Below are positions 3,399 to 43,306 of a stretch of 56,885 bases of DNA, in pieces. The position numbers and the translations under genes are program-made. The notes beneath the pieces were generated by a model. It worked only from the letters and a program-made list of their open reading frames with translations, did not search any database and had not been told where the DNA came from. The stretch lies in the sequence record DRR723986_44686, one strand, 5' to 3'. Numbering within the stretch: position 1 is the stretch's first letter; each line of letters opens with the position of its first letter.

Positions 3399-3400
3399 CG

Positions 3401-18271: not shown

Positions 18272-18299
18272 TAATAGCCCATTGTGGTGTCTTGGCTTT

Positions 18300-18339: not shown

Positions 18340-18359
18340 ATTTAACCTATAAAATGGAA

Positions 18360-19850: not shown

Positions 19851-19869
19851 TGAGTACCAAAGTTACTCA
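19851..19869. promoter_or_regulatory. Palindromic operator candidate, copy 1 (TGAGTAcCAAAGtTACTCA)
   Basis: 6-bp perfect arms with a 7-bp spacer; 17/19 identical to 43288-43306. Confidence 0.72.
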
Positions 19870-19887
19870 CTCCAATTTGACAGCAAA
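19858..19887 (-). promoter_or_regulatory. Bacteroidota sigma-A promoter of operon B
   Basis: -7 box TAACTTTG (19865-19858) and TTTG -33 box (19887-19884), 18-nt spacer. Confidence 0.65.
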
Positions 19888-19928
19888 ACTAACAGAATTT
19901 GATTGATTATAAATTTTGCTTAAGTAAT

Positions 19929-21611
19929 CTACCTGTGTAGTTGATAGATTAGATTTAAAGTGCCGGAAAATGTCCAAAGTTTCTGACCAGAAGGATAATT
20001 TCTAGTTGTATTAGGAGCATCCTGCCACTGGTAATTTAGCCCTTGGTTGACTTGAACCTTGCTGCTTAGAATAAACCTATCCCACTGATGATCTACTAAA
20101 ACTCCCATACTGAAATCTATCCAGGGATACTTATCGGGATTGTCTGCAAAGACTCTATTGAAAAAATCCTGATGATTCTCAATTCGCTGAAACAAAAGTC
20201 CGATTTTATTCAAATTTGAAATCTTTGAAATTTCCAAAATTTGGGCATTTCCTCCGACCCCAATTCCTATTCCCATGGACTGTCCTTCATTTGTAAATCC
20301 CCGCACTTGATAGTGTGTATGCCAGCTGGTATTTAGGGTATTGAGTTGGGGATATCTTACATACCTGTTTACCGATTCTGCCTGCTGGACTATCTCCCCT
20401 CTCACTTGAAAATACTGTCCTTTGGTAGAGGTTTTAAAAAGTTTAGAAAAACCTAACAGGTAGGCTCTAGCATGCTCGGGGTTTAATATAAATTCTCTCC
20501 AATTGTAGCTATGATCCTGTTTGCCATACTCCGCATAGGCTTCGAAATTACCTTTGGAATTATAATACCTCAAAAAGAAGGAGATCTGTTGATCTTGGCC
20601 TTTGGAGTCGTAAACTACCGTGTTATTATTGCTAAATAGCTTCACTTTTTGAAAAGGCTCCAAAACAGGCATCCTGCCTCTAAAGTCATTTGTCACATCT
20701 TCATTGTATTGCTGAAAAGTTCTATTAAATCCAGCGAAGAAATTCGGCAAAAACACAGGTTGGTATGTAATGGAAACCCCACTTACATAGCGCCAATCCC
20801 CTCGAAAAGGCGTGGCAAATACATCATTGAGACCCTGATTTTGAGATGGAAGTATTCCCGAATCATTTGCCCGTGCCATAATTATTTCAGCCTCCAGTTT
20901 GCCAATAAATATATTGGCTGGGCGACTTGTTCTTAGAAAGAGATGCTCCATCCCTCTCGCATTGTTGCTAAAAATAAGTGCATTAAACTGACCTGGGCCC
21001 CACCAAATATTCTCAGTGGAAGCACCTACAGCTATAGGTCCCGCATTTAAACTAACATACGATTGTCCCCACCAGGCAAAGGAGTTATAATCTTCGGAAA
21101 AGCGCTCAGGATGATCTCCGAAATTCCAGTATCTGAATCGTGCAAATAGAATATTATCTGAAAAATTCTCTCCAAAACCTTGATAAGCCTTATTTTGACT
21201 AGCGACAAATTCTGGTCTGAATTGAAATTTCAAAAAGAATAATTTCCCATAAATGCCTGGCGAAAGTAGCGTCTGGGCACCAGCGCTATTCATCATGCTA
21301 AAATTCCCCCATCCAAATGGCCTATTGGAATTATACACGGAAGTGCTCAGTACAGGCAAGAGTTCCAAATGGACCTTTTTTTCAACAAATGGGACGGAGT
21401 CCTGAGTATAGAAACGATTTTGATTAAGACTCACAATAGGCCTTAATCCCAAGGAAAAGTCTTTTAACTCCTCTACACCTAATAGTTGCTGCCTTCTCAG
21501 ACTTTCCTCCAACACTGGAAATCCAGCTGGAATAGTTTGAGAAAAGGAGTTTGTGGAACACAACAGGACCACTAAACCACTAAGAATCCAGAAATAGTAT
21601 TTCAACATCAA
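19929..21611 (-). CDS. Capsule assembly Wzi-family outer-membrane beta-barrel protein
   Basis: Signal peptide; STENIWWGPG..ALIFSNNA motif; aromatic beta-strand pattern; ATG at 21608 is an alternative start. Confidence 0.8.
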   Translation of the reverse strand: MMLKYYFWILSGLVVLLCSTNSFSQTIPAGFPVLEESLRRQQLLGVEELKDFSLGLRPIVSLNQNRFYTQDSVPFVEKKVHLELLPVLSTSVYNSNRPFGWGNFSMMNSAGAQTLLSPGIYGKLFFLKFQFRPEFVASQNKAYQGFGENFSDNILFARFRYWNFGDHPERFSEDYNSFAWWGQSYVSLNAGPIAVGASTENIWWGPGQFNALIFSNNARGMEHLFLRTSRPANIFIGKLEAEIIMARANDSGILPSQNQGLNDVFATPFRGDWRYVSGVSITYQPVFLPNFFAGFNRTFQQYNEDVTNDFRGRMPVLEPFQKVKLFSNNNTVVYDSKGQDQQISFFLRYYNSKGNFEAYAEYGKQDHSYNWREFILNPEHARAYLLGFSKLFKTSTKGQYFQVRGEIVQQAESVNRYVRYPQLNTLNTSWHTHYQVRGFTNEGQSMGIGIGVGGNAQILEISKISNLNKIGLLFQRIENHQDFFNRVFADNPDKYPWIDFSMGVLVDHQWDRFILSSKVQVNQGLNYQWQDAPNTTRNYPSGQKLWTFSGTLNLIYQLHR

Positions 21612-22696
21612 AGTGATTCCAACATGTTGACGTACTTCTTATTTATAGCCTTCCAAGAATAGTTTTTACGGGCTAGTTTATACATATCCTTGGAAATCAA
21701 ATCTCTATCAAAGGTATCCAAGCACTTTAACAATTCTAGAAGCTCTTCAGCATCAGCGAAATATATCCCTCTATTAAAAGTAGTTTCTCTATTGTAATTT
21801 ACACCGAAGGCAATAATAGGTAGGGCTAGATACATGGCTTCCACTAAGGAAGGATTGGTGCCTCCTGCACTATGCCCATGCAAGTAATAGTGGCAATTGG
21901 ACCTAAGTACATTGAGCTCCGCACTGGTATAGATTGGGTTATATAGAATTACATTTTTCTTTGTCGAATATTCCTCATATAGTCTCATTCCGTACTCACT
22001 GGAATTCCAATTACCAACGATTACATAAGGAATGGAAAGATCGTTTTCAGAAAAAACTTTTAGCTGCAGTTCAATATTATTTTCCGGCTCTATTCTGCAG
22101 ACCGTAAAAATATAGGGCTCATTTATAAACGAGTATTTCTTTTGGTACAAGGATGTTTCTACGGGAGTCACATGGTTGGCCCCGTAGGCGATTAAATGTG
22201 ATTCCTTTCCATATTCCTCGAGCACATAATCGTAGATATGCTTGTTGTCAGAAATGATCGCGTCGGAATACCTCACCGCCAATGATTCAGAGAATTTCAA
22301 AAACCTTTTGGCCAAAGCTCCCCACTTGTCTCTCTTCCATTCCAGTCCATCTATATGTGTAATTATTTTGGCACTGGTAAAAGGCCTAATAAAAGGGATA
22401 GTGATAGCTCCTGAAACACCTAAAACCAGAATGTAATCAAAGCCTTTAATTGATTTCCAAAGGGATATTGAATCATATATGACACTTTGAACCCCATTTG
22501 CCTTTAGGTCAAGGTACTCCAGTTTCGCACCTTTATATGTATCCATTTTCTCCGGATAGCTATTGCTCTGGCAGTAAATGGTAATATCATAGAATCTAGG
22601 AAGCAGGTCCAGAAGATATTCCACCAAAGTCTCAAATCCGCCGTAGTTAGCCGGGACACCTACAATGCCTACGATGGCTAGCTTTTTCTTAATCAT
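21608..22696 (-). CDS. DUF1972-type GT4 glycosyltransferase (WchF-like)
   Basis: GVPANYGGFET, DGLEWKRDKW, RIEPENN and HGHSAGGTNPSLVEAM motifs. Confidence 0.88.
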   Translation of the reverse strand: MIKKKLAIVGIVGVPANYGGFETLVEYLLDLLPRFYDITIYCQSNSYPEKMDTYKGAKLEYLDLKANGVQSVIYDSISLWKSIKGFDYILVLGVSGAITIPFIRPFTSAKIITHIDGLEWKRDKWGALAKRFLKFSESLAVRYSDAIISDNKHIYDYVLEEYGKESHLIAYGANHVTPVETSLYQKKYSFINEPYIFTVCRIEPENNIELQLKVFSENDLSIPYVIVGNWNSSEYGMRLYEEYSTKKNVILYNPIYTSAELNVLRSNCHYYLHGHSAGGTNPSLVEAMYLALPIIAFGVNYNRETTFNRGIYFADAEELLELLKCLDTFDRDLISKDMYKLARKNYSWKAINKKYVNMLESL

Positions 22697-24284
22697 TCAA
22701 ATAATTCTTCATGGTTTTCACCATATTAATCCTGTCCTTTTCGATGTTCAGTAAAAAGTAACGCGTATGAGAATTCAAGAGTTCTTTAGTTTTAGAGGAA
22801 TTTGCCATGGCTTCTACTTTCTGAACTTCCTCCAAGGCATCTTTAATAATCAAATATCTCAAAGAAACCTGACCTTCTGGATAGACAAAATGACTATCTC
22901 CGGATGGTAAATCTGAAAATATCGCCGATTTCATGATTTGTGGAGACCACAAGTTAAAAGCCCAGCGCAACATGCCATCATATCCTCTGGCTTTTGAAAG
23001 CATAATCAGGAAGTAAATATCGGTATAATTAGACGCCATCAGCATATTTGGCTGAACTTCATAGCAAGAAGTGTAATAGGTAGTTTTAAATCCCTTTGAT
23101 TTCCTTGCCGCCAGCTTCGCAGGTTCAAGGACAATATTGCTAGCTAGAGAATAATCAAAAACTAACTCCGAAAGACCTGGGCTAAATCTACCAGAATATC
23201 CAAATTTATATGCGGGATCAATTGCTTTAACGTATTTAACCAAGAGAGCAGTGCTGTTAATATCCCTTTCATCTACCCAAAAAACGGTCTTATCCATCCA
23301 GTTTTTTGATTTAAGATAGGATGCGAAATCCACTAAAAATGGATTCCAAAAATCGTTGTAAGCGTCAGTTCCCGGTTCGGATTTAAAAGTTTTCACGGCA
23401 CCTGATTCCTCGTCAAAATAAAAATAGGTGAGATTCCAGGGAAAAAGGTTGTGCACGGCAATCTCCTTAGATATTCCCTTCGAAAATGCCAATTCTACGT
23501 ATTTCTCAAAGGTGGAGTAATCATAGGTGTAGGTTCCATCTTTCTTTTTTCGGATCTGAATCATCATTTGCTCCAGAGGCTTGATCGAAGTATTGTAAAG
23601 ATCGTAGAAAACTGAAGTGGTAACGACAGTCTGATTAAATCCATGGAGCTGATCAAACATTTCTGTAATCTTATTCCAGTGAGCGTCAGAATAAGGATCA
23701 AGCTTATAATAAGTAGAAATTGAAAGTGGGAATTGCCAAAAATCCATTTCGTAGTCCAGGGAGGAAAAATCCGATAACTTACGACCAATAACATTTATTA
23801 GTGCTTCTATTTTCAGCGTACTTCCATTTTGATCAAATGTAAGTTCCAGTGGATATTTACCTGGTTTTAGATTATCCGGTATTTCTATTTTAAGGAGCCC
23901 ATATGAAGTAGTGCTATCAGGCACAAAGGAGCTTCCTTGGATGAACTCTGCTCGATCAGGGAATCTTTTTTTCACGAAAGTCCCTTTCTTTTTGGTAGCG
24001 CCACAGTTACCTCCAGAGATATCCCCTTCTACTAAATGCAGCTGAACCAGCTCAGACTTGATTTTTTTTGAATCCGTTTTTATCTCAAAATTGAGCACTT
24101 TGGTTGAATCTCCATTAATCAAGAAAGGCAAGATAAGGGATTCATTTCTCCATGCCTTTACCTCAGTTTTATTTGGAAGCATAGTTCCGAAATCCTCGAA
24201 AGAGGTGAAATGCCCGCTTAGTTGTGCTTGTGCGCAATTTCCAAAAGCCAACCAGGCTACAAAAAATACCAATGTTTTTTTCAC
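22689..24284 (-). CDS. Exported GH123-like (DUF4091) glycoside hydrolase, putative beta-N-acetylgalactosaminidase (GTG start)
   Basis: Signal peptide; DFWQFP, YDYSTFEKYVE, WVDE acid pair, GMLRWAFN, GDSHFVYP..SLR. Confidence 0.72.
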   Translation of the reverse strand: MKKTLVFFVAWLAFGNCAQAQLSGHFTSFEDFGTMLPNKTEVKAWRNESLILPFLINGDSTKVLNFEIKTDSKKIKSELVQLHLVEGDISGGNCGATKKKGTFVKKRFPDRAEFIQGSSFVPDSTTSYGLLKIEIPDNLKPGKYPLELTFDQNGSTLKIEALINVIGRKLSDFSSLDYEMDFWQFPLSISTYYKLDPYSDAHWNKITEMFDQLHGFNQTVVTTSVFYDLYNTSIKPLEQMMIQIRKKKDGTYTYDYSTFEKYVELAFSKGISKEIAVHNLFPWNLTYFYFDEESGAVKTFKSEPGTDAYNDFWNPFLVDFASYLKSKNWMDKTVFWVDERDINSTALLVKYVKAIDPAYKFGYSGRFSPGLSELVFDYSLASNIVLEPAKLAARKSKGFKTTYYTSCYEVQPNMLMASNYTDIYFLIMLSKARGYDGMLRWAFNLWSPQIMKSAIFSDLPSGDSHFVYPEGQVSLRYLIIKDALEEVQKVEAMANSSKTKELLNSHTRYFLLNIEKDRINMVKTMKNYLND

Positions 24285-25348
24285 GGTCGAAATAGTTTTG
24301 AGATTTTTGATTCAAAAATCGTTCTTGAAAATCCTCTCCGTTCGATCGCTGCGCCTTCACTTAACTTCTTCCAATATGTAGGCTCAGCAACCATCTTATT
24401 TATTTCCGAAACAATTTCGGACAATTCATTATAATTGATCTGGTATCCATTAACGCCATCTTTGACCAATTCTGTAATCCCTCCCACTCTTGGCACTATG
24501 GCAGGAAGGTCGTAGTGCATTCCTTCCAGAATAGTCATCCCAAAGGTCTCCACCCATTTATCGGGATGAGCAAGGTTCAAAATTAAAGAAGCATTTGCAT
24601 AAAAAGAATGTACATCCTTATTTACTGGGAATATTTGAATATTCACAGGTAAGGATTCATTAGCTATAAACCGATCTACTTCGCGTTTGTCATCACTCAG
24701 TACCAATGTGAAATTCACAGCAGGCATTTGCTTGGAAAGTGTCACAAACTCAGATATCCCTTTATATGGTCGCAAAGAAGCCAGCATCAATACTTCAAAC
24801 GCTTTCGGGTTCTTCGTAGTATTTTTGGCTTTAGTTTCAAATTCCTTGGTGACGCAATTGTAAATCACTTGAACCTTTGCCCCTCTCAATTTAGGGTTGG
24901 TTTGTAAAAATCTGGAGACTACAATTACTTCAGAAGAAAATGTACGGACCACCCAAAACAAGAAATTGCTTAGAAGTTTGGGGCTAATTTCATATTCATG
25001 TACATGGGTAATTACTCTTTTGCCCAACAATCTTCCCATTAGAATAGCTCCAAAAGGTAGGATCGTATTGATGTAATAGATGCCATCAGCTCTCTTATTC
25101 TTTACCAAAAGTTTAATGGATAATAAGAATTGGCTGAAAAAGAAGGAGAAAAGCGTCAGGATTCTATGCTCAGATCTACGATAAAAGTTAGTCTCAGAAT
25201 CCAAATCAGATAAAAACCCTTCCGTATTACTGGTATATAACTTCACTTCAAATCCATCTTGTTTGGCAGTATTGATCACACTGGACAAGATCTGCGGACT
25301 ACCTGTGAAGTTATTAAGAAGGTGAAAGAATACGATCTTCTGTGGCAC
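24281..25348 (-). CDS. Glycosyltransferase family 4 (GTG start)
   Basis: HLLNNFTGSP, HVHE, LRPYKG, ETFGMTILEGM. Confidence 0.87.
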   Translation of the reverse strand: MPQKIVFFHLLNNFTGSPQILSSVINTAKQDGFEVKLYTSNTEGFLSDLDSETNFYRRSEHRILTLFSFFFSQFLLSIKLLVKNKRADGIYYINTILPFGAILMGRLLGKRVITHVHEYEISPKLLSNFLFWVVRTFSSEVIVVSRFLQTNPKLRGAKVQVIYNCVTKEFETKAKNTTKNPKAFEVLMLASLRPYKGISEFVTLSKQMPAVNFTLVLSDDKREVDRFIANESLPVNIQIFPVNKDVHSFYANASLILNLAHPDKWVETFGMTILEGMHYDLPAIVPRVGGITELVKDGVNGYQINYNELSEIVSEINKMVAEPTYWKKLSEGAAIERRGFSRTIFESKISKLFRP

Positions 25349-26471
25349 TGGTAGATTTTGAATTTAAAATGATAAGGAAAACAGTAATCATCAAATAAAG
25401 TGTGGTAGCATAAAATTCATGCGTAAACTGCTGTGCTATGATAAATATGTAGAAAAACATAGCTGCGTAGAACACTTTATTTCTGATGAAGAAGAGAACT
25501 GACATAAGTAGCACGGCTGCCAAATATGCCATATACCCAATGAATCCGTAGGTATAGAGAAGCATAGAAGTTCCATTTTCAATATAACCTGTGCGGTAAA
25601 CAGTAGTTCTTGCAATGACATCGTCCACCATATTATTACCATGACCGATGAGGTATTCTTTCCAGCTAGAAAAGTCAAAAAAGGAAATCCTGAAAGCTTG
25701 GAGCAGGTCTGCTCGTGAATTCAGCGTATTTACGTTAAAGATTAATTTATTGATGAACTCAAAATAATAGATGTAAAATAAGGCAGCGAATACGACAGTC
25801 AGAATGAATATTTTCCTGTGTTTGAAAAATAGGATGAGGTAGAAAATCACGAACGTGTTCCTGTTGAACGTTAGCATTAGCCCAAGAATAGCTACCCAAA
25901 AGGCTAAAGAATCCAACTTACTGTCTTGCTTATTTTCCTTCTTCCAATAGTAAATCAAAAACCAGCTAATCAGCAGTGTTCCATACGATTGTACGGTAGT
26001 AGTCAATCCTTTGGCCGCATGGAGAAAGGGTAATCCCTTGTCATACATTGGATGTACATGGGAGTTCAAACCAACCAAATAACTGCTAAACACATACAAA
26101 ATACCTATGCAGATATGAAGAAATAATGCCCAATACAGGATATCCAGGAATCCTTCCTCTTCAGCAGCCAAGCCAGCAAAGAATAATCCGAGGACCGGAA
26201 AGAATATGATTAAGGAAGAATCTGGAAGGTTTAATAAATATGGAAGCAAAAAGTAAGAAGCTAACCCAACGATTGGAATAAGAAGGTTAGTAGAAATTGC
26301 CTTTCCCATAAAAATTTGATGGAATACCAGTAAGGCTAACACGCCCAGCATGGCAGCTTTGTCCAAGGGTAAACTGATCAGTTTAGAACAGGAAATTAAG
26401 AAAACGAATAGGATTAATCCCGCTTTCCCGATAGTTCGGGTGGATGAAATGGCTAACCCCCGGCTATTCAC
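25314..26471 (-). CDS. Putative Wzy polymerase (multi-pass membrane protein, GTG start)
   Basis: About 10 TM segments; FNRNT, SR..L..A, IGHG and ENG motifs; position among GTs downstream of wzx. Confidence 0.65.
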   Translation of the reverse strand: MNSRGLAISSTRTIGKAGLILFVFLISCSKLISLPLDKAAMLGVLALLVFHQIFMGKAISTNLLIPIVGLASYFLLPYLLNLPDSSLIIFFPVLGLFFAGLAAEEEGFLDILYWALFLHICIGILYVFSSYLVGLNSHVHPMYDKGLPFLHAAKGLTTTVQSYGTLLISWFLIYYWKKENKQDSKLDSLAFWVAILGLMLTFNRNTFVIFYLILFFKHRKIFILTVVFAALFYIYYFEFINKLIFNVNTLNSRADLLQAFRISFFDFSSWKEYLIGHGNNMVDDVIARTTVYRTGYIENGTSMLLYTYGFIGYMAYLAAVLLMSVLFFIRNKVFYAAMFFYIFIIAQQFTHEFYATTLYLMITVFLIILNSKSTSATEDRILSPS

Positions 26472-27747
26472 CTATCACCTCCTTGATTTGTTGTAGCTGA
26501 TTAAATCTAGAATACTGTTGAATTTTTGACTTTGAGGATTCCTTTAATGCAAGAGCTCTTCCTGATGCATACAATTCCCGAATCAATTCAATTTGCTCCA
26601 AGCACTTTTCTGCTGAATTAGCAAAGAAACCTAACTCCACTTCAGTCAGCATTTGCTCCATGATGTCATGATCAGTTGGGCAAAGCAACACTGGTTTCCC
26701 CAGGGCCATGTATTCATACAATTTACTGCTTGGGATACCCTTCATGTTTCCATAGGCCATAGCCAAAAAAGCATGGGATTTCTGCAAAGCAATAATAGCT
26801 TCTTCTCTTGGCAATCTTGTAGTGACTTTGACGTAGCGTTTCAATTCCTCCGGCACCAAGCTTTCTATCCGTTTTCGTTCTTTTACATCATAGCCAGCCC
26901 CCAGGAAAATAAGCTGAAATGGTCTTCCTGCAGTATGTGCTAACTGCAAAGCAGCGATAATATTCGTTACATCCTGAGATGGATAGACAACCCCACTGTA
27001 GGTAATAGTAAATTCGTTTGCACATGGCTGAAGAGGAAGGCTTAACAATTCATCTTCAAATCCATTCTCAATAGTGAATCCTTTCTTATCGAGGAAATCT
27101 GCAATTCTTTCGGTATAAAGTTGGCTTACAGAAATAATAGCAGATGCCGTTCCCACCCATTTCTTTTCATAGTTTGCTTCTACATTAGCTATCCATTTCC
27201 GCACCCCACCACCTACTTTTTGCATCTGCAATTCATTCGTACTCCAGTCGTCTCGGTAATCTGCATACCAATTGAGACCATAAGCTTTATTAAGTGAGTA
27301 ACCTATTCTAAACAAGTAAAAAGGCTCACCCGAAATGATAGCAGAATGAAAAGTTTCTTCTTCAAGTCGTTTGCTTAGAAAAGGTAAGAAATTTGAAAAA
27401 GAGGTGAATTTCAAGGTAAAACGCGCTAAGAAGACATCTAAGAGTTTTACCAGCAAAAAGAGTGGACGATATACAGATTCGCCAAAAGCTAAATACGCTT
27501 TGTCCAATATACCCGGCCGAAAAGGAAGGTAATAAACCTCATGCGTATCAAATACCTCATGCCTTACCCTATCTCCAAGTCTAACCTTTGTATCCTGATG
27601 TGAACGGGTTTCGGAAGTCCACTCCCTAGTAACGACGGTAGGATAATAGCCAAGCCGATGCATGTTTCGAGCCCAAAAAGTAATACGCTGAGAGGGTGTC
27701 AGCGTACAGGGTGAAAAATAATTGGAAATTAGAAGTACCTTCTTCAA
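26464..27747 (-). CDS. Glycosyltransferase (GT4-like, TTG start)
   Basis: KVLLISNYF, ADYRDDW, PSSKLYEY..GKP; same subfamily as 5837..7081. Confidence 0.8.
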   Translation of the reverse strand: MKKVLLISNYFSPCTLTPSQRITFWARNMHRLGYYPTVVTREWTSETRSHQDTKVRLGDRVRHEVFDTHEVYYLPFRPGILDKAYLAFGESVYRPLFLLVKLLDVFLARFTLKFTSFSNFLPFLSKRLEEETFHSAIISGEPFYLFRIGYSLNKAYGLNWYADYRDDWSTNELQMQKVGGGVRKWIANVEANYEKKWVGTASAIISVSQLYTERIADFLDKKGFTIENGFEDELLSLPLQPCANEFTITYSGVVYPSQDVTNIIAALQLAHTAGRPFQLIFLGAGYDVKERKRIESLVPEELKRYVKVTTRLPREEAIIALQKSHAFLAMAYGNMKGIPSSKLYEYMALGKPVLLCPTDHDIMEQMLTEVELGFFANSAEKCLEQIELIRELYASGRALALKESSKSKIQQYSRFNQLQQIKEVIGE

Positions 27748-30082: not shown

Positions 30083-30107
30083 TTGATTGGCATATCCCTA
30101 GTCATTA

Positions 30108-34045: not shown

Positions 34046-35010
34046 TTTGACGAAAAAGGATGCTTGGTCAATTCACTCGCTGCCAAAGGATGATAATCAC
34101 CTTTCAGCCCAATTGGATCCATGTGTCTAATGTCGTGAACGATTTCAATACTTGGTCTTGCTTCTTCCAAACCAAATCCATTTCCATCTAAAATATGCTG
34201 GTAGCTATGGGTATGCAGTTCTGTAAATCCATCTGAAAATTCAATTTCATTACCTTCCATAGTCAAGGAGCGATAAGTTCTACCACCTCTTGCCTTCACA
34301 GCTTCTGGTAAAGTGTCTGCATTAATACTTAGGAACCAACGCACGCGAGCTTTTTCAAGCTCAAAATACCCTGAGGCACGATCATGGGTGTGGATATGTA
34401 CTACATTTTTTTTCACTTTCCCAAATACCCAGGTGAGCATATCGTAAAAATGAACGCCAATATTAGTAGCTATGCCCCCAGATTTACTTATGTCACCCTT
34501 CCAAGAAGTATAATACCAATGGCCTCTGGAAGTAATGTACGCAAGATCAATATCATAAATCTTATCCTTAAGTCCCTCTTCTACTTTTTTCTTTAACGCG
34601 ATTATTGAAGGGTGTAATCTTAGTTGAAGGATATTGTAGACTTTAGTACCATGCTCCTCTTCTACCCTGGACAGTGCTTCTATATTCCAAGGGTTAAGAA
34701 CTAAAGGCTTTTCGCAAATAACATTTGCTCCCACTCGCAATCCAAAACGAATATGAGAATCGTGAAGGTAATTTGGCGAGCAGATACTCACAAAATCTAT
34801 ATTCTTTTCTGTTCGCTTTAATTTTTCAACATGACGGTCAAACCTCTCAAATTCTGTGAAAAAATCTGCGTCTGGAAAATGGCTGTCCATTACTCCTACG
34901 CTGTCAAACTTGTCATACGCAGCCAAAAGTACGTTTCCTGTATCTTTTATGGCTTTCATATGCCGTGGAGCTATGTATCCTGCTGCTCCTATCAATGCAA
35001 AATTATTCAT
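34042..35010 (-). CDS. wbpB: UDP-GlcNAcA 3-dehydrogenase (Gfo/Idh/MocA family, WbpB/WlbA)
   Basis: GAAGYIAPRH, CSPNYLH, CEKP, SGGIATNIGVHFYD. Confidence 0.92.
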   Translation of the reverse strand: MNNFALIGAAGYIAPRHMKAIKDTGNVLLAAYDKFDSVGVMDSHFPDADFFTEFERFDRHVEKLKRTEKNIDFVSICSPNYLHDSHIRFGLRVGANVICEKPLVLNPWNIEALSRVEEEHGTKVYNILQLRLHPSIIALKKKVEEGLKDKIYDIDLAYITSRGHWYYTSWKGDISKSGGIATNIGVHFYDMLTWVFGKVKKNVVHIHTHDRASGYFELEKARVRWFLSINADTLPEAVKARGGRTYRSLTMEGNEIEFSDGFTELHTHSYQHILDGNGFGLEEARPSIEIVHDIRHMDPIGLKGDYHPLAASELTKHPFSSK

Positions 35011-35012
35011 AG

Positions 35013-35585
35013 TTACTGTTTTGTTACTTTGTTATTTTGAAGCAAATAGCGATCTCCTGTCTCTTCACATACAGCTTCACCTTGTGCATTAAATAGTAAT
35101 TTGGACCCAAATTCACTCATCCAACCTATTTGTTTTGCTGGATTACCTACCACTAATGCAAAATCAGGCACATTCTTGGTGATTACCGAACCCGCTCCTA
35201 TAAAGGCAAAAGACCCAATATTATGTCCGCAGACGATAGTAGCATTCGCTCCTATACTTGCGCCTTTCCCCACATGGGTTTTTGCATATTCAGACTTTCT
35301 GTTCACTGCACTTCTCGGATTGATCACATTGGTAAAAACCATTGAAGGACCTAGAAATACATCGTCGTCACAGGTGACACCTGTATAAACAGACACATTG
35401 TTTTGGATCTTTACGTTATTTCCCAAAACTACGCCTGGCGATACCACTACATTCTGACCAATGTTGCATCGTTCGCCTATTTTACAATTTGGCATCACAT
35501 GAGAAAAATGCCAAATTTTCGTACCAGCTCCGATTTCGCATCCTTCATCTATGTAGGCACTTTCATGTGCGAAGTAATCTTTCAT
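35013..35585 (-). CDS. wbpD: UDP-GlcNAc3NA N-acetyltransferase (hexapeptide repeat, WbpD/WlbB)
   Basis: [35 protein letters not shown]. Confidence 0.92.
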
Positions 35586-35671
35586 TTAATACTTATTTTA
35601 TGGGTAAGAGAACCTTCAAAGAAATCGATCAATCGGAATATCTACTGATTCGATTAAAGGTGTCTTCATAA

Positions 35672-36799
35672 CTATTTAAAAAAGGAATTTATGGATTCTA
35701 TAATATACTCCTGATCTTCAACCTTCATCTCTGTATGGATGGGCAGGGAAAGTACCTTTTCGCATAGCGCTTCTGCTACGGGAAAATCTCCTTTTTCATA
35801 TCCCAAATTCAAATATGCTTCCTGCTGGTGCAAGGGAAGCGGATAGTAAACCATGGAAGGGACTCCCTTTTCGGCTAAATAGCTTTTCAATTCATCTCTG
35901 CTCACTCCTTCTACTTGTATGGTATACTGATGGAAAGCATGCGTGGAATTCACTGCTCTTTTAGGAATCCTTATATGAGGATGGTCTGTAAATGCACTGT
36001 CATATCGAGCTGCAACTTCATTTCTGGAGTCAGAATATCGATCCAAGTGTTGCAGTTTTACATTTAAAATAGCCGCCTGCAGGGTATCCAATCTAGAATT
36101 TACGCCTACTATGTGATGGTGGTACTTTTTCTGCTGCCCATGATTAGCGATCATTCTCAGCTTCTCAGCCAATTTCCCGTCATTGGTAAACATTGCTCCG
36201 CCGTCTCCATAGCATCCCAAGTTTTTAGATGGAAAAAATGAAGTCGTGCCTACATCTCCCATCGTACCAGCCTGTTTTACTGTTCCATCTGAGAAGCTGT
36301 AATTGGCTCCGATGGCCTGCGCAGTATCTTCAATGACTTTGATATTATGCTTTTTGGCTACAGCCAAAATAGCTTCCATGTTGGAGCATTGACCATATAG
36401 GTGAACTGGGACTATCCCGGCAGTTTTCGAAGTTATTTTTGATTCCAGTTGAGTAATATCAAGTTCAAAAGTGGAATCAATCACATCAATGAATACAGGT
36501 ACTAAACCTAGTAAAGCAATCACTTCCGCCGTTGCTACGTAGGTAAATGCAGGAACGATTACCTCTTGCCCTGGCTGGAAACCAAGACCCATCATTGCTA
36601 TTTGCAGGGCATCTGTACCATTGCCACAAGTGACTACATACTTAGCACCGGTATAACTGGCTAAGGCATCTGAAAACTCTTTTACCTTTGGGCCATTTAT
36701 AAAGGAGGTAGTATCAATTACACCTTGAATAGCCTGATCCACTTCAGTCTTGATTGCCTCGTATTGAGACTTCAAGTCTACCATTTGAATAGAACGCAT
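35672..36799 (-). CDS. wbpE: DegT/DnrJ aminotransferase (WbpE/WlbC)
   Basis: NGTDAL, EDTAQAIGA, SFFPSKNLGCYGDGG, NSRLD; clustered with wbpB and wbpD. Confidence 0.88.
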   Translation of the reverse strand: MRSIQMVDLKSQYEAIKTEVDQAIQGVIDTTSFINGPKVKEFSDALASYTGAKYVVTCGNGTDALQIAMMGLGFQPGQEVIVPAFTYVATAEVIALLGLVPVFIDVIDSTFELDITQLESKITSKTAGIVPVHLYGQCSNMEAILAVAKKHNIKVIEDTAQAIGANYSFSDGTVKQAGTMGDVGTTSFFPSKNLGCYGDGGAMFTNDGKLAEKLRMIANHGQQKKYHHHIVGVNSRLDTLQAAILNVKLQHLDRYSDSRNEVAARYDSAFTDHPHIRIPKRAVNSTHAFHQYTIQVEGVSRDELKSYLAEKGVPSMVYYPLPLHQQEAYLNLGYEKGDFPVAEALCEKVLSLPIHTEMKVEDQEYIIESINSFFK

Positions 36800-36805
36800 A
36801 CTTAT

Positions 36806-37903
36806 TTACTGACTAATTTGGGGAAGAAGGACTCGATATATGGCATATAAAACACCCACCAAAAACCCAAGGAACATACTAAATACAATAATCAAGGGCT
36901 TATTTGGTTTACTAGGTCCTAAAGGGACGCTTGCCTTTTCCATTATTGTAAAGACTGGAGTTTCTCTTTTGAGCTGGATTGTCGATTGCTCAAGCTCTTG
37001 CTTCAGGGTGTTGTAAATATTAAAAGTAAGGTTGAACTCCAGCTGCAATTGCTCTTCTTTTGTCATTGCTCGTCTAGAAATCATTCCTTGATTTGAGTCT
37101 CTATAGGATGCTAGTTTTAATTGTGCCTCTTGGAATTTAACCTGTGCTTCATCTACTCGATCCTCAACGAATTCTAAGTTTATTTTTTGCTTTACCGTTT
37201 TATAATTGGTCACATACTCAATAAGCCGCTCCAGCACCAGTGCATTTACCTCTGCTGAAATTAGAGGCTCAGGCATTGATACATCTAACTGGATCAGTTT
37301 AATCTCATTTTCTATAGTAATTCTTTCTTTCAACTGCTTCAAAACATAATTTTCCTGTGATGTCACAGAAACATAGCCTAGTTCCACAGCTTCAGAATCA
37401 GTAGTAATTGGGCTAGCTCGGCTTATTTCATTAGATGAAAAAAGACCAATTATTCTTGCTGGAATGCTGAATACAAAATCAATCGTTTTTTTAACAATAT
37501 TTCCTGGCCTTTCTCCAGCATAATATTCCTCCAAAGTCATTTCCTTGCCTTTAGTTTGAAAGAAAAATTTCTCCTTCATGATACTTAGCAGAAAATCCCT
37601 ACTATGGATGACATCAGGGAATAATTCGGAACTCAACATCGTTTGGTCTCCTTGCATTTGAGGAAGTGAAATTCCTGCAAGACCTGCCAGAGCCCCCATT
37701 TGCCCAAATTGTCCTGAATTTTCATTTTCCTCAAGAATCACGAGGGACGAGGAAGTGAATTCTTTTGGACTAGTCGTAGCTATGAGCAAACCTAAGATTA
37801 GTCCTGCCAAGGTGAATACAAGTAATCTCTTTTTGAAAGAGAGTATTTTTTGGATTAACTCAATATAATTCAGTTCCACTTTTGACTGCTCATTTGTAGA
37901 CAT
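36806..37903 (-). CDS. wzz: Chain-length determinant (PCP-1, Wzz family)
   Basis: Two TM helices; LAGLAGI motif; coiled coil; proline-rich PSKPNK before TM2; no kinase domain. Confidence 0.85.
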   Translation of the reverse strand: MSTNEQSKVELNYIELIQKILSFKKRLLVFTLAGLILGLLIATTSPKEFTSSSLVILEENENSGQFGQMGALAGLAGISLPQMQGDQTMLSSELFPDVIHSRDFLLSIMKEKFFFQTKGKEMTLEEYYAGERPGNIVKKTIDFVFSIPARIIGLFSSNEISRASPITTDSEAVELGYVSVTSQENYVLKQLKERITIENEIKLIQLDVSMPEPLISAEVNALVLERLIEYVTNYKTVKQKINLEFVEDRVDEAQVKFQEAQLKLASYRDSNQGMISRRAMTKEEQLQLEFNLTFNIYNTLKQELEQSTIQLKRETPVFTIMEKASVPLGPSKPNKPLIIVFSMFLGFLVGVLYAIYRVLLPQISQ

Positions 37904-37946
37904 TAGAAACTTCTATTGGTAAAAATTAAATTTAAAATTACTAAAA

Positions 37947-38561
37947 TCATGATGATAATGGTTGTGCAGGAATCCCAACAAGCACAGAAGACTTCAAAAG
38001 TGTTTTGGTGACAACAGCTCCAGCTCCTACTATCATTTCATCACCTAGCTCAACTCCTGGAAGTATTACGGCTCCGGCACCTATCCTACACCTTTTGCCA
38101 ATTTTGGATGCACCCAAAAGCATAGCACCCGGTCCTATTTCGCTAAAATCACCCACAGAACATTGATGATGTACATTCGCTCGGGTATTAATCAAAACGC
38201 CCTTTCCAATGGTAGTCTCAGGACCGATAAAACTAAAAGGCATAGCATCAAAACTTGTGGAATCTCCAGATTCATTAGTAATTACGTTTTGGATTCCCAA
38301 AGCGCTACCACCTAGTGAAGTTAATAGTAGAAATAATTTTTCTCTATGAACTGGATTTCCGACTCCCAGCACAAATCTAGGATCTTCACTTAAGCTTTGT
38401 TCTAATTCAACCAGATTAAAAATCCCCTGACTTGGTAGTTCGCTATTTTCAAACTTGCTGGCGTCTTGATCAAAAAATATGATCTCAGCAGCAGGCATGC
38501 CGCTATTAATCAGCACATGATGTACTTCCAAACCATGTCCACCTGCTCCAGCAATTATCAT
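37947..38561 (-). CDS. Sugar N-acetyltransferase, PglD/NeuD family
   Basis: GAGGHG, GVGNP..R, INT..NVHH, hexapeptide repeats, GIPA. Confidence 0.85.
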   Translation of the reverse strand: MIIAGAGGHGLEVHHVLINSGMPAAEIIFFDQDASKFENSELPSQGIFNLVELEQSLSEDPRFVLGVGNPVHREKLFLLLTSLGGSALGIQNVITNESGDSTSFDAMPFSFIGPETTIGKGVLINTRANVHHQCSVGDFSEIGPGAMLLGASKIGKRCRIGAGAVILPGVELGDEMIVGAGAVVTKTLLKSSVLVGIPAQPLSS

Positions 38562-38588
38562 TTTCTATTATTCCTTAAAACATAGCAA

Positions 38589-38614
38589 TGCCCTTGAGTA
38601 TAAACCCAAGGGCA
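38589..38614 (-). terminator. Stem-loop after ugd (weak terminator or mRNA stabiliser)
   Basis: Minus strand TGCCCTTGGGT-TTAT-ACTCAAGGGCA: 11-bp stem with one G-U, followed by a broken U-tract. Confidence 0.55.
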
Positions 38615-38621
38615 AAAAGTA

Positions 38622-39941
38622 CTACTTAGAACCAATCCCGTAAGTATCAAAACCAAGGGTTCCCAAATATTTCTTATCGTAAATATTTCGGCCATCGAAT
38701 ATCACTTTGTTCTTCAATAGTCTGCCGACCACATCCCAACTAGGAATACGGAATTCCGACCATTCAGTAACCAAAAGGAGTGCATCAGCATCCACCAAAG
38801 CTTCATAAGCATCTTTACAATAGGTCACCTTGTCAAAGATGTAATGTTCCTTAGCTTCCTCCATTGCGATAGGATCGTAAGCTTTCACCGTAGCTCCCGC
38901 TGCTCTCAACTCATCGATGATCACTCCAGCAGGCGCTTCACGCATATCATCTGTATTTGGCTTGAAGCTTAGTCCCCACATCGCAAAGGTCATTCCTGAT
39001 AAATCCTCTCCGAAGTGAGCTTTTACTTTTTTGGAAAGCACATATTTCTGATCGTCGTTTACATCCTCCACAGCTTGGAGAACTCTCAGGTCATAGCCAT
39101 ACTGCTTAGCTGTTTTGATGATCGCTTTTACATCCTTTGGAAAGCAAGACCCACCGTATCCCACTCCTGGGTAGATGAATTTGTTGCCTATTCTTGGGTC
39201 AGATCCAATTCCCTTTCTCACCATGTTGGCATCGGCTCCAACCAATTCACATAGGTTGGCTATATCATTCATAAAGGAAATTTTGGTAGCCAGCATGGCG
39301 TTGGCAGCATACTTGGTCATTTCAGCAGAAGGAATATCCATGTAAATAATTCGCTCTCCGCTGAGTTGGAATGGCTTGTATAGACGCTTCATAATCTCTT
39401 CAGCTCTTTCGTCATCCACTCCAATTACAATTCTATCCGGCTTCAGAAAGTCTTCCACTGCAGCTCCTTCCTTCAGGAATTCAGGATTGGAAGCTACTGC
39501 AAAAGGAAGATCAGAAGATCTCTTATCTAGCGCTGCTTTAATCGCTGCACGAACTTTCTCACCGGTAGTTACCGGCACAGTGCTTTTGGTAGCCACTACA
39601 ATGTAATCACTCATTTTAGTACCAATCTCATCAGCCACAGCCAGTACGTATTTCAAATCCGCAGATCCATCCTCGCCAGGAGGTGTCCCTACAGCAATGA
39701 AAGCTACAGATGCACCTTGGATTGCCTCACCCAAATCTGTGCTAAATTTAAGCCTGCCACTCTTATAATTACGGACTACTACTTCTTCGAGACCGGGCTC
39801 ATAAATCGGCATAATGCCGTTTTTGAGGTTATCAATTTTCTTCTGATCGATATCGACACAGGTGACTTCAATCCCAACATCAGCAAAACATGCTCCTGAA
39901 ACCAAGCCTACATACCCGGTTCCTACTACTGCAATTTTCAT
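38622..39941 (-). CDS. ugd: UDP-glucose 6-dehydrogenase
   Basis: GTGYVG, KSTVP, SNPEFLKEG, GYGGSCFPKD, FKPNTDDMREAP, DGRN. Confidence 0.95.
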   Translation of the reverse strand: MKIAVVGTGYVGLVSGACFADVGIEVTCVDIDQKKIDNLKNGIMPIYEPGLEEVVVRNYKSGRLKFSTDLGEAIQGASVAFIAVGTPPGEDGSADLKYVLAVADEIGTKMSDYIVVATKSTVPVTTGEKVRAAIKAALDKRSSDLPFAVASNPEFLKEGAAVEDFLKPDRIVIGVDDERAEEIMKRLYKPFQLSGERIIYMDIPSAEMTKYAANAMLATKISFMNDIANLCELVGADANMVRKGIGSDPRIGNKFIYPGVGYGGSCFPKDVKAIIKTAKQYGYDLRVLQAVEDVNDDQKYVLSKKVKAHFGEDLSGMTFAMWGLSFKPNTDDMREAPAGVIIDELRAAGATVKAYDPIAMEEAKEHYIFDKVTYCKDAYEALVDADALLLVTEWSEFRIPSWDVVGRLLKNKVIFDGRNIYDKKYLGTLGFDTYGIGSK

Positions 39942-39964
39942 ATATGTTAATAAGTTTTAACTAA

Positions 39965-42625
39965 CTACGGTTTGTTGTTATTGACTATTGTTTGAACTAA
40001 AATTGCCACTGTGGCTAGACTTGATGCTAACCCAATCCATGTTGCCGGCCCCATTCTGGTTCGAATTGGTTTTTTGGGCACTACTATTTCTGCTCCAGGT
40101 TCTAGTTCAGGATAAAATTTAAGACCTAAAAAGTTGTTGGTTTTTTTGGCGTCGCCATTTGCATAGACTACATAAGTCTTACCACGTCTAGCATCTTCGG
40201 TGAAACCGCCCGCTTTAGAAATGTATTTTTTCAACTTACTTTTCTTCATAAACCTAGTAGTAGTAGGCAATAAAACTTCCCCTACCATACGGACGGTTTG
40301 TAATTCCTTTGGAATTTGAATTATATCACCTTCGAGCAGGATCAAATCCTCTTCAGATCCAGGGTTATTTAAAATAAACTCCAGATCAATTCCCACAAAG
40401 TCCTGCTCCTTCAATCTCATAGAAGTGATAGTGGAGTCTTGTCTTAGGGTATCAAAAGCCGGAGTAATTTCAAAAAGCCTTCTTTTCTGCTCAGCTTGCT
40501 CCCTTTCAAACCTCTCCAATTCATTCTGAGCGAGTTTTGTGTCAATCCTCTCAAACAAAAGTTCTTCGGCTTCATTTGTATTTCTATTTGTTTCAGGATC
40601 TAAATTCGACCGTATTTCTTTCAGTGCCTCACTTCTTAACTCTTCCTCTGTAGGACCTTTGAAATATACTGTACGGCGAATTAGACTTGCTCCTTTAGGA
40701 TAGGCATACTGGGTAATACCACCAGCGCGCATAATAACATCCGAGATTCTCTCATTCGCAGTTGATATCGCGAAATCTCCGGGATATATAACTTCTCCTT
40801 GAATTGTGATCAATTGCTCTCTTTCAAACCCTGGACTTCTTCTAATAAAGACGTGGTCAAAAGGTTGAAGTGGCTGGTTTCGCTCTTCTTCTGTTAACTC
40901 CAAATTAGGGTCTATCGACATAGTCTCAATCTGGGCTAATTTGCCAGATGCTGCATCTCTTACTCTTCGAGCTATCTCAATAGACGAGTTTGTAGCTGAC
41001 TCCAACAATCCTCCTGATCTAATAATAAGATCTCCGACTGTCATATCTGTAGCATAGGGATAAGTACCTGGATAATTAATTTCCCCGGATATTTTCACAT
41101 AGTATTCCTCCTGCACATCGTATCTGCTCGGCACGAATAATAGATCTTCATTTTTCAAAGCGATATCCTCAGCCGTTCCGTTTAATATGCCTTTCAGGTC
41201 TAGTGGCTCAGCAGCGAGTGTCAAATCTGCACTTGTACGGTATAAGGTAGCTCTTGTAGCAAATGCTTCTGGTTTAAGCCCTTGTGCTTTTTCAACTAAT
41301 CCTTTTACAGTAAGTCCGCCTTCATCCAATGAATACTCTCCTGGACGAGTGACCGAACCCGTAACTTGAACCCGGTTTGAGAATCTTTCTAATGCTTCTC
41401 CGATTAAAATTTCATCGCCATCCTTCAAGGAAAATGATCCGAATTCGCTGGAGGGCACATCAACTACCTTACGTTGATTATTTTCAATACGTCTAACAGT
41501 TACTCTATCCTGATAAGCCAAACTTGTAAAACCACCTGTATAGATATAAAGATCTTCCAGTGATTCACTAGGTTTCACTTCAAAAAGACCTTCCCTACGT
41601 ACCGGACCAACGATTTCTATCCTAGTTCCTACAGGTGGAACGATCACAACGTCATTATCCTGAAGCGTAATATTTGAACTTTGAACGCCTTTGGAGAGGA
41701 ATTCATAAATATCTACTGTGGCGACAAGTCTGCTATCCCTGTACACCTGCACATTTCTAAAAGCCCCATTTTCATTAGGTCCACCAGCGGCATACAAACC
41801 ATTAAAAACTGTAGCAAATGAAGGAAGGGTATAAGTACCTGGCTTTGTCAACTCTCCTACCATTGAAACCTTAATGGACCTGATATTTCCTAACCTCAAT
41901 TGAATGAATGTATTTGGGTTAGAACCATTCAGACCCGAGTATATTCGACCCAGTGCGGTTTTGATTCTTCCTATTGCTGCTTCGATAGTTGATCCCCCCA
42001 CCTGAATTGGCCCCACATTTGGAACAAATACTCTTCCTTCTGGATTGACGTTCAAATCATAAGACTGTTGGGAGGCACCATATACATCAAGTAACAACTG
42101 ATCCCCTGAGCCTATCACATAAGATTGTGGGGTAGGAATATTTAAACTTGGGTTGAAATTCAAATCTCGGTTGTGAAACAACTTGTAGCCGAAAATCTTC
42201 TTTTGCTTCACAGTCAGATCATAGTAGGGATCGGATCTACGAATAGAATCAAACATATCAAGTTCCGAATACCCATTGACAATTCTACCGGAAGTAGCAT
42301 CCTGCCCTACTCCATCAGACATAACTGACATTTGCAGCTCAGAGATACGCTTACTTAATTTGGCAGCCTCCAAAGCAGGCATACCTCTTTCTCGAGCTAA
42401 GGCTGTTAACTGATTTGTGGTAAGTCCATTTGCTTCAGCTCTTTTAATGATTTGCTCGATCTGAGCATCAGACAAATCATCTACTTTTAGATTTTGAATT
42501 TCAGAGAGACTTTGACTTTGTGCAACAAAAGCCATCATCAAAAAGGCCAACATCAGTAGGCAATTCTTACAATTTATCAACGTAGTGTATTTTTTCAATT
42601 GTATAATTTTCGCGTCCAAATTCAA
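39965..42625 (-). CDS. SLBB-repeat polysaccharide export protein (large OPX/KpsD-like)
   Basis: Poly_export domain (YVIGSGD..VYG) and multiple GE-x-x-PG SLBB repeats; a TTG at 42598 gives a better signal peptide (MKKYTTL...). Confidence 0.88.
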   Translation of the reverse strand: MNLDAKIIQLKKYTTLINCKNCLLMLAFLMMAFVAQSQSLSEIQNLKVDDLSDAQIEQIIKRAEANGLTTNQLTALARERGMPALEAAKLSKRISELQMSVMSDGVGQDATSGRIVNGYSELDMFDSIRRSDPYYDLTVKQKKIFGYKLFHNRDLNFNPSLNIPTPQSYVIGSGDQLLLDVYGASQQSYDLNVNPEGRVFVPNVGPIQVGGSTIEAAIGRIKTALGRIYSGLNGSNPNTFIQLRLGNIRSIKVSMVGELTKPGTYTLPSFATVFNGLYAAGGPNENGAFRNVQVYRDSRLVATVDIYEFLSKGVQSSNITLQDNDVVIVPPVGTRIEIVGPVRREGLFEVKPSESLEDLYIYTGGFTSLAYQDRVTVRRIENNQRKVVDVPSSEFGSFSLKDGDEILIGEALERFSNRVQVTGSVTRPGEYSLDEGGLTVKGLVEKAQGLKPEAFATRATLYRTSADLTLAAEPLDLKGILNGTAEDIALKNEDLLFVPSRYDVQEEYYVKISGEINYPGTYPYATDMTVGDLIIRSGGLLESATNSSIEIARRVRDAASGKLAQIETMSIDPNLELTEEERNQPLQPFDHVFIRRSPGFEREQLITIQGEVIYPGDFAISTANERISDVIMRAGGITQYAYPKGASLIRRTVYFKGPTEEELRSEALKEIRSNLDPETNRNTNEAEELLFERIDTKLAQNELERFEREQAEQKRRLFEITPAFDTLRQDSTITSMRLKEQDFVGIDLEFILNNPGSEEDLILLEGDIIQIPKELQTVRMVGEVLLPTTTRFMKKSKLKKYISKAGGFTEDARRGKTYVVYANGDAKKTNNFLGLKFYPELEPGAEIVVPKKPIRTRMGPATWIGLASSLATVAILVQTIVNNNKP

Positions 42626-42750
42626 TTTAAACCAAGTAATCCAAACCCTAATTTCTGATTTTTAATCAATTTACAAGCTATTTCGCACAGCTTCGCCCTT
42701 TCAGTCACAAAAGCGCCTATCACAAAATTTACTCTATAAACTCGGGCTCC

Positions 42751-43269
42751 CTAAGCCCCTACCTCTTTGTCGAACAAAACCAAGCCCGTAGAGACCATCC
42801 TATCAGATAGCAAGGTCAATACCACTTTTCGTTCTATCATTTCCTCTATCTTATTCGAGAGGTTCAAAATGTAGCTCTCGTTAAGGTTATCTCCGGTGAC
42901 TACTACATCTATTTTTCCTGAGTCTATGCCTTTAGATAGATCCCCAACTAGGATTACTTGACTCACCTCTCCCATTCTCTCCAGAATTTGCTCGAGCAAC
43001 TTGTCCAAACCTAGATATTTACGAATGATATCTTGTATGTTAGAGAAAAAGGGATGAGTGACATTTGCCTTGTAGGCAATTTTATTTTTATCTGATTCCT
43101 TTACTAAAATACCTGCTTGTGTTAGGTTATTCAATTCCTTGCGAATTGCATTGGTCGACTCACCAAACTCGTCAGCCAAACCTCGCAAATGACTTTGTGT
43201 TTTGGAGTTAACAAAAAACTTAACAAGTAACCTCAACCTTGTTTTTGAGGTAATTAAGGATTCAAGCAT
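42751..43269 (-). CDS. ArsR-like winged-helix regulator with a C-terminal nucleotidyltransferase-like domain
   Basis: SKTRLRLL..HLRGLADEFGESTNAIRKELNNL..AG wHTH; VILVGDLSKG....IDVVV resembles a degenerate GS..G..SDID motif. Confidence 0.78.
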   Translation of the reverse strand: MLESLITSKTRLRLLVKFFVNSKTQSHLRGLADEFGESTNAIRKELNNLTQAGILVKESDKNKIAYKANVTHPFFSNIQDIIRKYLGLDKLLEQILERMGEVSQVILVGDLSKGIDSGKIDVVVTGDNLNESYILNLSNKIEEMIERKVVLTLLSDRMVSTGLVLFDKEVGA

Positions 43270-43287
43270 AAAAATTCACTTCAATAG

Positions 43288-43306
43288 TGAGTAACAAAGG
43301 TACTCA
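43288..43306. promoter_or_regulatory. Palindromic operator candidate, copy 2 (TGAGTAaCAAAGgTACTCA), enclosing the -7 box TACCTTTG of the regulator promoter
   Basis: 18 nt upstream of the regulator ATG; 17/19 identical to 19851-19869; TTTG at 43329-43326. Confidence 0.75.

Follow-up and report, generated by a model that had tools for sequence, protein, structure and literature searches.

We analysed a window of 56,885 bases from sequence record DRR723986_44686, in which Pfam and NCBIfam matches to its 32 open reading frames (ORFs) reveal two long polysaccharide operons, A and B (Table 1). Operon A is headed by the gene for a small protein, P0001. A palindrome, TGAGTA-N7-TACTCA, stands immediately ahead of this gene (site 2) and again ahead of operon B (site 1). 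The sequence evidence assembled below is best read as identifying GAGTA-N7-TACTC, which takes the longer form TGAGTA-N7-TACTCA in Algoriphagus, as the operator of a family of small regulators. These proteins combine a winged helix-turn-helix (wHTH) with a degenerate domain resembling minimal nucleotidyltransferases (MNT), and they head polysaccharide loci in Bacteroidota outside Bacteroidales.

Table 1. Features of the window, and NusG paralogue genes near regulator homologues in loci from other families (aa, amino acids; nt, nucleotides).
Feature	Coordinates	Strand	Details
Regulator P0001, 172 aa, first gene of operon A	42751..43269	-	N-terminal winged helix-turn-helix and C-terminal degenerate MNT-like domain
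Operon A, polysaccharide locus	19929..42625	-	wza-like, ugd, acetyltransferases, wzz-like, aminotransferases, flippase, glycosyltransferases, GH123, wzi-like
Operon B	96..19664	-	tviB-like UDP-sugar dehydrogenase, 2611-aa SprB-repeat/CHU_C surface protein, wza-like, wzc-like, glycosyltransferases, Wzy-like
Site 2, putative autoregulatory operator	43288..43306		gene (minus) strand TGAGTACCTTTGTTACTCA
-7 box TACCTTTG embedded in site 2	43295..43302	-	
Site 1, putative operon B operator	19851..19869		gene strand TGAGTAACTTTGGTACTCA
Complete Bacteroidota-type promoter at site 1	19858..19887	-	TTTG 19884-19887, 18-nt gap, TAACTTTG 19858-19865; -7 box within site 1
Ops-like leader motif GTGACTGAAAGGGCGAAGCTG	42688..42708	-	between regulator stop and wza-like gene
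Degenerate ops-like core TGCGAAG, operon B leader	19755..19761	-	~90 nt past site 1, ~90 nt before ATG; read by eye
NusG paralogue gene, L170	5516-5989	-	few-base overlap
NusG paralogue gene, L177	5420-5944	-	
NusG paralogue gene, L178	5316-5885	-	
NusG paralogue gene, L173	2747-3322	-	

The two 19-mers, which a first-pass annotation of this DNA had picked out, are the sole exact matches to the palindrome in the window; both are intergenic, as that annotation held, and the flanking genes are all on the minus strand. In 100 dinucleotide-preserving shuffles the exact pattern occurred 0.00 times on average, and two or more copies were reached in 0/100. With up to two mismatches allowed, the window contained four matches against a shuffle mean of 2.40, and 20/100 shuffles reached four. 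This tolerant pattern is not enriched; the signal is confined to the exact arms. Site 2 stops 18 nt short of the ATG of the regulator gene. Site 1 lies 59 nt past the stop codon of a wzi-like ORF (19929..21611) and 186 nt ahead of the ATG of a tviB-like ORF (18360..19664).

Bacteroidota sigma-A promoters consist of a -33 box, TTTG, and a -7 box, TAnnTTTG, spaced by approximately 17-21 nt. A minus-strand TAnnTTTG is indeed present inside both palindromes, and the combined pattern TTTG-N17-21-TAnnTTTG has a single match in the whole window, at site 1. The -7 boxes proposed in the first-pass annotation are thus present at both sites; at site 1 the box belongs to a full -33/-7 pair, and site 2 has the -7 box only. 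That TAnnTTTG is the -7 element of Bacteroidota, on which this proposal relied, is stated in PMC7641319. Scans for sigma-70 promoters and for terminators returned nothing useful at the sites; such scans are ill-suited to Bacteroidota promoters.

Regulator homologues of at least 90% identity carry Algoriphagus names, and we ran genome-wide scans on the nearest genome (G001, with 85% of sampled words in common) and its relatives. Orthologues of P0001 are encoded in 37/38 good-quality Algoriphagus genomes, most of which also hold a second paralogue of 45-50% identity; in many of these genomes a single contig carries both paralogues, 55 to 140 kb from each other. GAGTA-N7-TACTC stands 17-21 nt before the ATG in 30/30 Algoriphagus orthologue loci (protein identity 74-100%), 26 of them exact matches to the palindrome and four with a final G. 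In a MAFFT alignment of these loci, identity in the palindrome columns reaches at least 90%, as it does in the coding region, compared with 30-80% in the flanks. The motif is therefore kept upstream of the orthologues at a fixed distance, and this extends to sister genera (17/18 loci). Across the genus, the exact site was detected in 60/61 genomes, with 149 sites in total compared with 20 for the reversed pattern.

Site 1 is conserved as well. In 15/15 other Algoriphagus genomes fetched, selected for a site 16-32 kb from the one at the regulator on the same contig rather than sampled at random, an orthologous site is found between the wzi-like gene and the tviB-like gene, with 119-267 nt separating it from the start of the latter. 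We refer to these as class-B sites and to those ahead of the regulator as class-A sites.

The circuit is larger than the two sites first described. Four exact sites were found in G001, or five if the outer bases may be Y/R, and two of them correspond to sites 1 and 2. The others precede a 168-aa regulator paralogue, an operon with MBOAT, glycosyltransferase and ABC-transporter genes and, on another contig, a ugd-manC-gmd nucleotide-sugar operon, so that all five G001 sites precede polysaccharide operons. The original pair of sites is thus borne out as part of a wider set that includes a second regulator; in Algoriphagus, four or five polysaccharide promoters of a genome bear the site. When one mismatch was allowed in G001, 14 matches were obtained versus 23 for the reversed control, that is, no excess. 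A region of ~72 kb or more on G001 contig C3, approximately 41,600-113,700 (window coordinates are C3 coordinates minus 70,368), amounts to a polysaccharide "super-locus": it holds four of the five sites together with the two regulator paralogues and numerous glycosyltransferase genes.

In a survey of 30 Algoriphagus sites, one per genome, 14 stood at the regulator, five at tviB, two at the regulator paralogue, one at MBOAT and one at ugd. Four preceded a nucleotide-sugar operon with an ops-like motif (two recognized by Pfam scan and two by layout and motif only), and one lay between DegT- and PglD-like genes. The remaining two, which have G/C-containing spacers and unrelated neighbours and one of which falls within an ORF, are apparently chance matches. 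Regulator or polysaccharide genes are therefore present at 28/30 sampled sites.

Beyond the genus, regulator homologues were detected in 46/118 sampled genera of the same family and in 40/301 sampled genomes of the phylum, and none was found among 64 genomes of one large Bacteroidota family. Upstream regions outside the genus were searched with GAGTA-N7-T[AG]CTC. The site was present upstream of 17/18 type-A orthologues from sister genera, 15/22 type-B paralogues and 31/35 loci from other families. The pooled set of other genera and families thus gave 63/75, compared with 0/75 for the reversed control and a shuffle mean of 0.055. An independent set taken from named genome records, mostly Saprospiraceae with Mesonia, Crocinitomicaceae, Salibacteraceae, Lewinellaceae, Cytophagales and Chitinophagales, gave 69/80 versus 0/80 for the reversed control. 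By hand count, YGAGTA-N7-TACTCR occurs in 35/40 regulator-positive versus 71/261 regulator-negative genomes. On these comparative counts, the palindrome is a conserved cis-element rather than a product of chance.

Of 14 other-family loci fetched, 13 were scanned, and in 12 of these clear polysaccharide genes follow the regulator; in the 13th the genes are those of a NusG paralogue and a transaldolase-family protein. A NusG paralogue comes directly after the regulator in 3/13 of these loci and two genes later in one more (Table 1), which suggests a regulator-plus-antiterminator cassette heading loci in other Bacteroidota families. In front of many type-B paralogue genes, a stretch of ~60-120 nt that runs up to the start codon consists of short C/A-rich tandem repeats, such as CCAACCACC, CACTAT/CACTAATCA and TCGGAACATC, whose unit varies by genus (L107, L110, L112, L113, L115, L118, L119, L129, L160 and L162).

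The 64 sites outside the genus, in which the search pattern itself fixes the arms, were used to describe the remaining positions. T/C is preferred on the left flank and A/G on the right. A/T makes up 84% of the spacer, where T outnumbers A on the gene strand (259 versus 118). The TA of the left arm together with the spacer forms TAnnTTTG pointing toward the gene in 29/64 sites and in the opposite direction in 0/64, and a forward TAnnTTTG is present in 36/72 sites of the independent set. In 14/17 class-A sites from sister genera, this -7 box inside the palindrome is part of TTTG-N19-20-TAnnTTTG, and the full promoter pattern is found in 6/16 class-B sites, site 1 included. In most cases the start codon follows the site at 18-41 nt, and this distance, taken with the -7 box data, indicates that a typical site covers both the -7 element and the likely start point. 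The proposed placement of the palindrome on a -7 box is thus common and oriented toward the gene, but not universal.

Among class-B sites the spacer drifts while the arms stay fixed (it is flipped in L085, and TTTG is gone in L086 and L088); therefore, selection acts on the arms. In L085 (G064:C1:538091-543109, site at 2501-2519), the 7-nt spacer is exactly reverse-complemented compared with other genomes, and the site lies within a 20-base-pair (bp) perfect inverted repeat (CGCTCTATTTCAAATGAGTA ... TACTCATTTGAAATAGAGCG). From its sequence this looks like a palindrome-mediated flip that removed the forward -7 box.

P0001 reaches no curated family. The best Pfam match scores 20.6 bits (cut-off 31.6) and the best NCBIfam matches score 16-19 bits (cut-offs 55-260), including the ArsR/SmtB models NF033788 (17.3 bits, cut-off 55) and SdpR (19 bits, cut-off 100); no Pfam helix-turn-helix model matched at E <= 0.001. 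The structure model is of high confidence, with a predicted local distance difference test (pLDDT) score of 93.8 and a predicted template modelling (pTM) score of 0.86. It arranges residues 1-70 as three helices, a recognition helix and a beta hairpin, that is, as a winged helix-turn-helix. Foldseek matches of the N-terminal half (SmtB, SqrR, AntR, ST1710 and BldR) show resemblance to ArsR/SmtB/MarR repressors, and the wHTH assignment made at first pass is borne out by both lines of evidence.

The C-terminal half matched 2rff (E = 5e-5) and MntA (E = 0.02) in profile searches and, in Foldseek, MntA/MNT chains with a probability of 1.0 and a template modelling score of ~0.55 normalised to the target. 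No solved PDB chain found by Foldseek covers both halves. In an alignment of 53 diverse homologues, E45 and L46 are invariant and R11, L15, F19, L28, R29, S38, N69, G87 and G126 near-invariant, so that conserved positions fall mostly in the N-terminal half; no Asp of the MNT-like domain is conserved at 90% or above. The catalytic G-S ... S-D-x-D motif is not kept, and the family consensus reads GD-A-G-DS--IDL. The MNT-like domain is probably not an enzyme, because GS is replaced by GD and the first catalytic Asp of the 2rff S-D-x-D motif aligns with a non-acidic position, K120 in P0001. No HEPN toxin partner adjoins the P0001 gene. A two-copy structure prediction scored 0.31 against a mark of 0.32 and was used neither for nor against binding.

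The first-pass annotation had omitted a UpxY/ops-type antitermination leader that lies downstream. GGCGAAGC occurs at 42690-42697 on the minus strand within the operon A leader, and the GCGAAGC core of the leader motif matches the ops sequence of Bacteroides fragilis PSE, CTGCGAAGCATA (PMC11685472). That paper describes UpxY recruitment sites as multipartite elements of ~40 bp. An exact GGCGAAGC is found in 12/16 class-B leaders; it is absent from the window's own and present at the matching place in 12/15 others. Outside the genus, an ops-like motif was found in 12/63 loci. This ops-like motif, GTGACTGAnnGGGCGAAGC(T/C), is a second conserved element that follows the palindrome in many leaders, at 42688-42708 in the window and ahead of the ugd and MBOAT operons in G001 (L165 11136-11196, minus strand; L167 10225, plus strand).

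A single UpxY-family NusG paralogue is encoded in G001, on contig C6 (NF033644, 152 bits, cut-off 100), a long way from the polysaccharide loci, and Pfam finds no NusG domain among the 32 window ORFs. One antiterminator may thus serve several operons. P0001 itself was considered as a UpxZ and ruled out, as it matches neither UpxZ nor UpxY. Palindrome and ops-like motif are anywhere from 34 to more than 600 nt apart, which rules out the palindrome as part of a ~40-bp ops element. The ops-like leader is a layer of known kind and separate from the palindrome.

Taken together, we propose a model, to which we assign a probability of roughly 70%, in which the regulator binds as a dimer to the two GAGTA half-sites, whose centres are 12 bp apart and which enclose the A/T-rich spacer. 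Left arm and spacer form the sigma-A -7 box in about half of the sites, and a dimer bound there should block RNA polymerase because the box is inside the site. P0001 would repress its own promoter at site 2 and, via read-through, operon A; the same protein would repress the operon B promoter at site 1 and further polysaccharide promoters in Algoriphagus. The MNT-like domain would act in dimerisation or sensing. Once transcription has initiated, the GCGAAGC ops-like leader would probably recruit a UpxY-type NusG paralogue, and the polymerase would be carried processively through these long operons.

Several observations weigh against this model. At site 2 the closest upstream TTTG is 23 nt away, outside the 17-21 nt range, and TAnnTTTG by itself is not enriched in the window (65 versus 62 expected). 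Approximately half of all sites lack an exact -7 box, and only 5/30 Algoriphagus class-A sites show the full promoter pattern. The site is missing within the examined stretch in 7/22 type-B paralogues and in 11/80 independent loci, although in 3 of these 11 the upstream sequence available was shorter than 260 nt. The strict pattern has 57 sites in the 40 regulator-positive genomes versus 33 for the control, a small genome-wide excess outside Algoriphagus that amounts essentially to the single site at the regulator, and since the genomes are related, all these counts overstate independence. Finally, the forward TAnnTTTG is lost from the spacer in 6/16 class-B loci and flipped in L085. Because of such spacers, promoter occlusion is not the whole story everywhere.

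The last point also favours the idea that the same protein binds the same site but activates transcription, or acts either way depending on the promoter, especially at sites whose spacer is devoid of a -7 box or that are 100-350 nt upstream. The distance from site to start codon spans -18 to -350, and sites at nucleotide-sugar operons stand ~200-260 nt before the ops-like motif. We nevertheless consider activation or dual action unlikely, since most sites have the short start-codon distance given above and carry or abut a -7 box, which is the position of a repressor, and no activator-type spacing to a separate promoter was seen.

It is very unlikely, in our judgement, that another factor binds the palindrome and that the wHTH-MNT gene is merely the first gene of the operons so regulated. 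Adjacency by itself cannot name the binder, a NusG paralogue accompanies the regulator in some other-family loci, and Algoriphagus has two regulator paralogues whose sites have identical half-sites. However, the site follows the presence of the regulator gene across sampled genomes, and in three orders it lies immediately ahead of the regulator start. Half-site and recognition helix alike are conserved (E45 and L46 invariant; R11, R29 and S38 near-invariant). The variable distance to the ops-like motif further separates the palindrome from the ops element as described in PMC11685472.

We see only a slight chance of a hairpin role in the 5' leader, with the palindrome folding as RNA or single strand to control stability or translation or to serve as a pause signal. 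It is foldable: 31-nt pieces fold at -4.5 (site 2) and -8.7 kcal/mol, with z-scores of -2.7 and -3.1 in longer context, and the right arm TGCTC of sister genera, a one-sided U-A to U-G change in 15/47 sequences, retains a G-U pair on the sense strand only. An extended hairpin that can be drawn in the window was rejected, as the consensus fold of 47 aligned class-A leaders retains only the six arm pairs (a 6-bp stem) with a covariation term of -0.3. Of these pairs four never vary, and no compensatory change is seen within the arms; only the outermost pair varies on both sides, with compensation in 6 sequences and a broken pair in 7. Use of the embedded -7 box would leave the left arm untranscribed, and some sites end 3-6 nt before the ATG. 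Rfam gave no match at gathering scores over the whole window and only two chance-level matches around site 2 (E = 0.63 and 3.7). This pattern of arm and spacer variation fits sequence recognition better than structure.

That the palindrome is a chance occurrence, or a shared promoter sequence without a dedicated binder, is hardly credible: TAnnTTTG is common and patterns with one or two mismatches are not enriched, but the two exact window copies had no counterpart in the shuffles, the upstream sites none in the reversed controls, and the arms reach beyond the -7 box yet are invariant.

The regulator model draws on familiar logic. Like ArsR/SmtB- and MarR-type autorepressors, P0001 is a small winged helix-turn-helix protein with a palindrome on its own promoter and a gene that stands first in the operon it would control. 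Unlike them, it reaches no family model, an MNT-like alpha/beta domain forms its C-terminal half, where ArsR proteins have the alpha5 helix and MarR proteins the dimer helices, and its putative targets are polysaccharide loci. MntA-type minimal nucleotidyltransferases, the antitoxins of HepT, resemble its C-terminal domain by profile and by fold; in P0001, however, the catalytic motif is degenerate, there is no adjoining HEPN gene and the domain is fused to a DNA-binding domain.

A precedent within the phylum is AusR, a GntR/FadR-type repressor of alginate loci in Zobellia galactanivorans. According to PMC7641319, its operator motif was found through promoter comparison across flavobacteria and includes the -7 box TAnnTTTG. 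Like the putative operator of P0001, the AusR motif is thus conserved and includes the -7 box, but AusR belongs to another protein family, its operator consists of TKGT-N2-3-ACMA pairs, and its loci are catabolic whereas those of P0001 are biosynthetic. The UpxY/UpxZ/ops system of Bacteroides capsule operons has in common with the loci studied here a GCGAAGC-type ops core in the 5' leader of long polysaccharide operons (PMC11685472), the UpxY-family NusG paralogue of G001 and the NusG paralogue beside the regulator in some families. It differs in that the palindrome is outside ops and P0001 is neither UpxY nor UpxZ. Furthermore, neither invertible promoters nor a UpxY for each locus were seen here, the UpxY-like gene of G001 being elsewhere in the genome. 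Autorepression from a gene's own promoter is therefore classical and has a Bacteroidota precedent in AusR; what is new is the protein architecture, the operator and its reach over at least three orders together with polysaccharide loci.

The control of capsule and exopolysaccharide synthesis in Bacteroidota is understood mainly from gut Bacteroides with its invertible promoters, UpxY and UpxZ. We found no described regulator of such loci for marine and soil Cytophagales, Flavobacteriales and Saprospiraceae. Likewise, a full-text search that excluded subscription journals returned no description of this regulator family, its motif or its operator; the first-pass annotation, too, knew of no described operator for the family. 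A 17-bp motif and one small protein would form a simple code, which would allow polysaccharide regulons to be predicted from sequence alone, provide a starting point for engineering or de-repressing exopolysaccharide production, and link initiation control to the recently described ops/UpxY control of elongation. More speculatively, and we regard this as possible but short of likely, the wHTH-MNT protein may be a master switch of initiation for surface polysaccharide in Cytophagales, Flavobacteriales and Chitinophagales. With UpxY/ops it would form a two-tier system, repression at the -7 box being followed by antitermination in the leader, and its MNT-like domain would sense a nucleotide or nucleotide-sugar, making transcription of the loci dependent on precursor supply. 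Outside Bacteroidales, such a switch would take the place that invertible promoters and UpxZ have in gut Bacteroides.

Concerning the genes around the sites, the regulator gene is flanked by genes for a 123-aa membrane protein without a family and for a wza-like protein. In operon B, the 2611-aa protein (10436-18271, minus strand), which has SprB-repeat, PKD and CHU_C domains, is encoded between the tviB-like and the wza/wzc-like genes and is apparently cargo of type IX secretion. This adhesin-like protein would apparently share a transcript with the polysaccharide export genes. Small PF05635 genes ("23S rRNA-intervening sequence protein") recur within or at the head of these polysaccharide operons (L166 2-370, plus strand; L167 12668-13039, plus strand; L046 722-1108, minus strand), and one of them sits between a palindrome and the paralogue regulator. 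A Wzc-like protein encoded on contig C8 of G001 (L004 1-264, plus strand) ends in a (YG)n tail.

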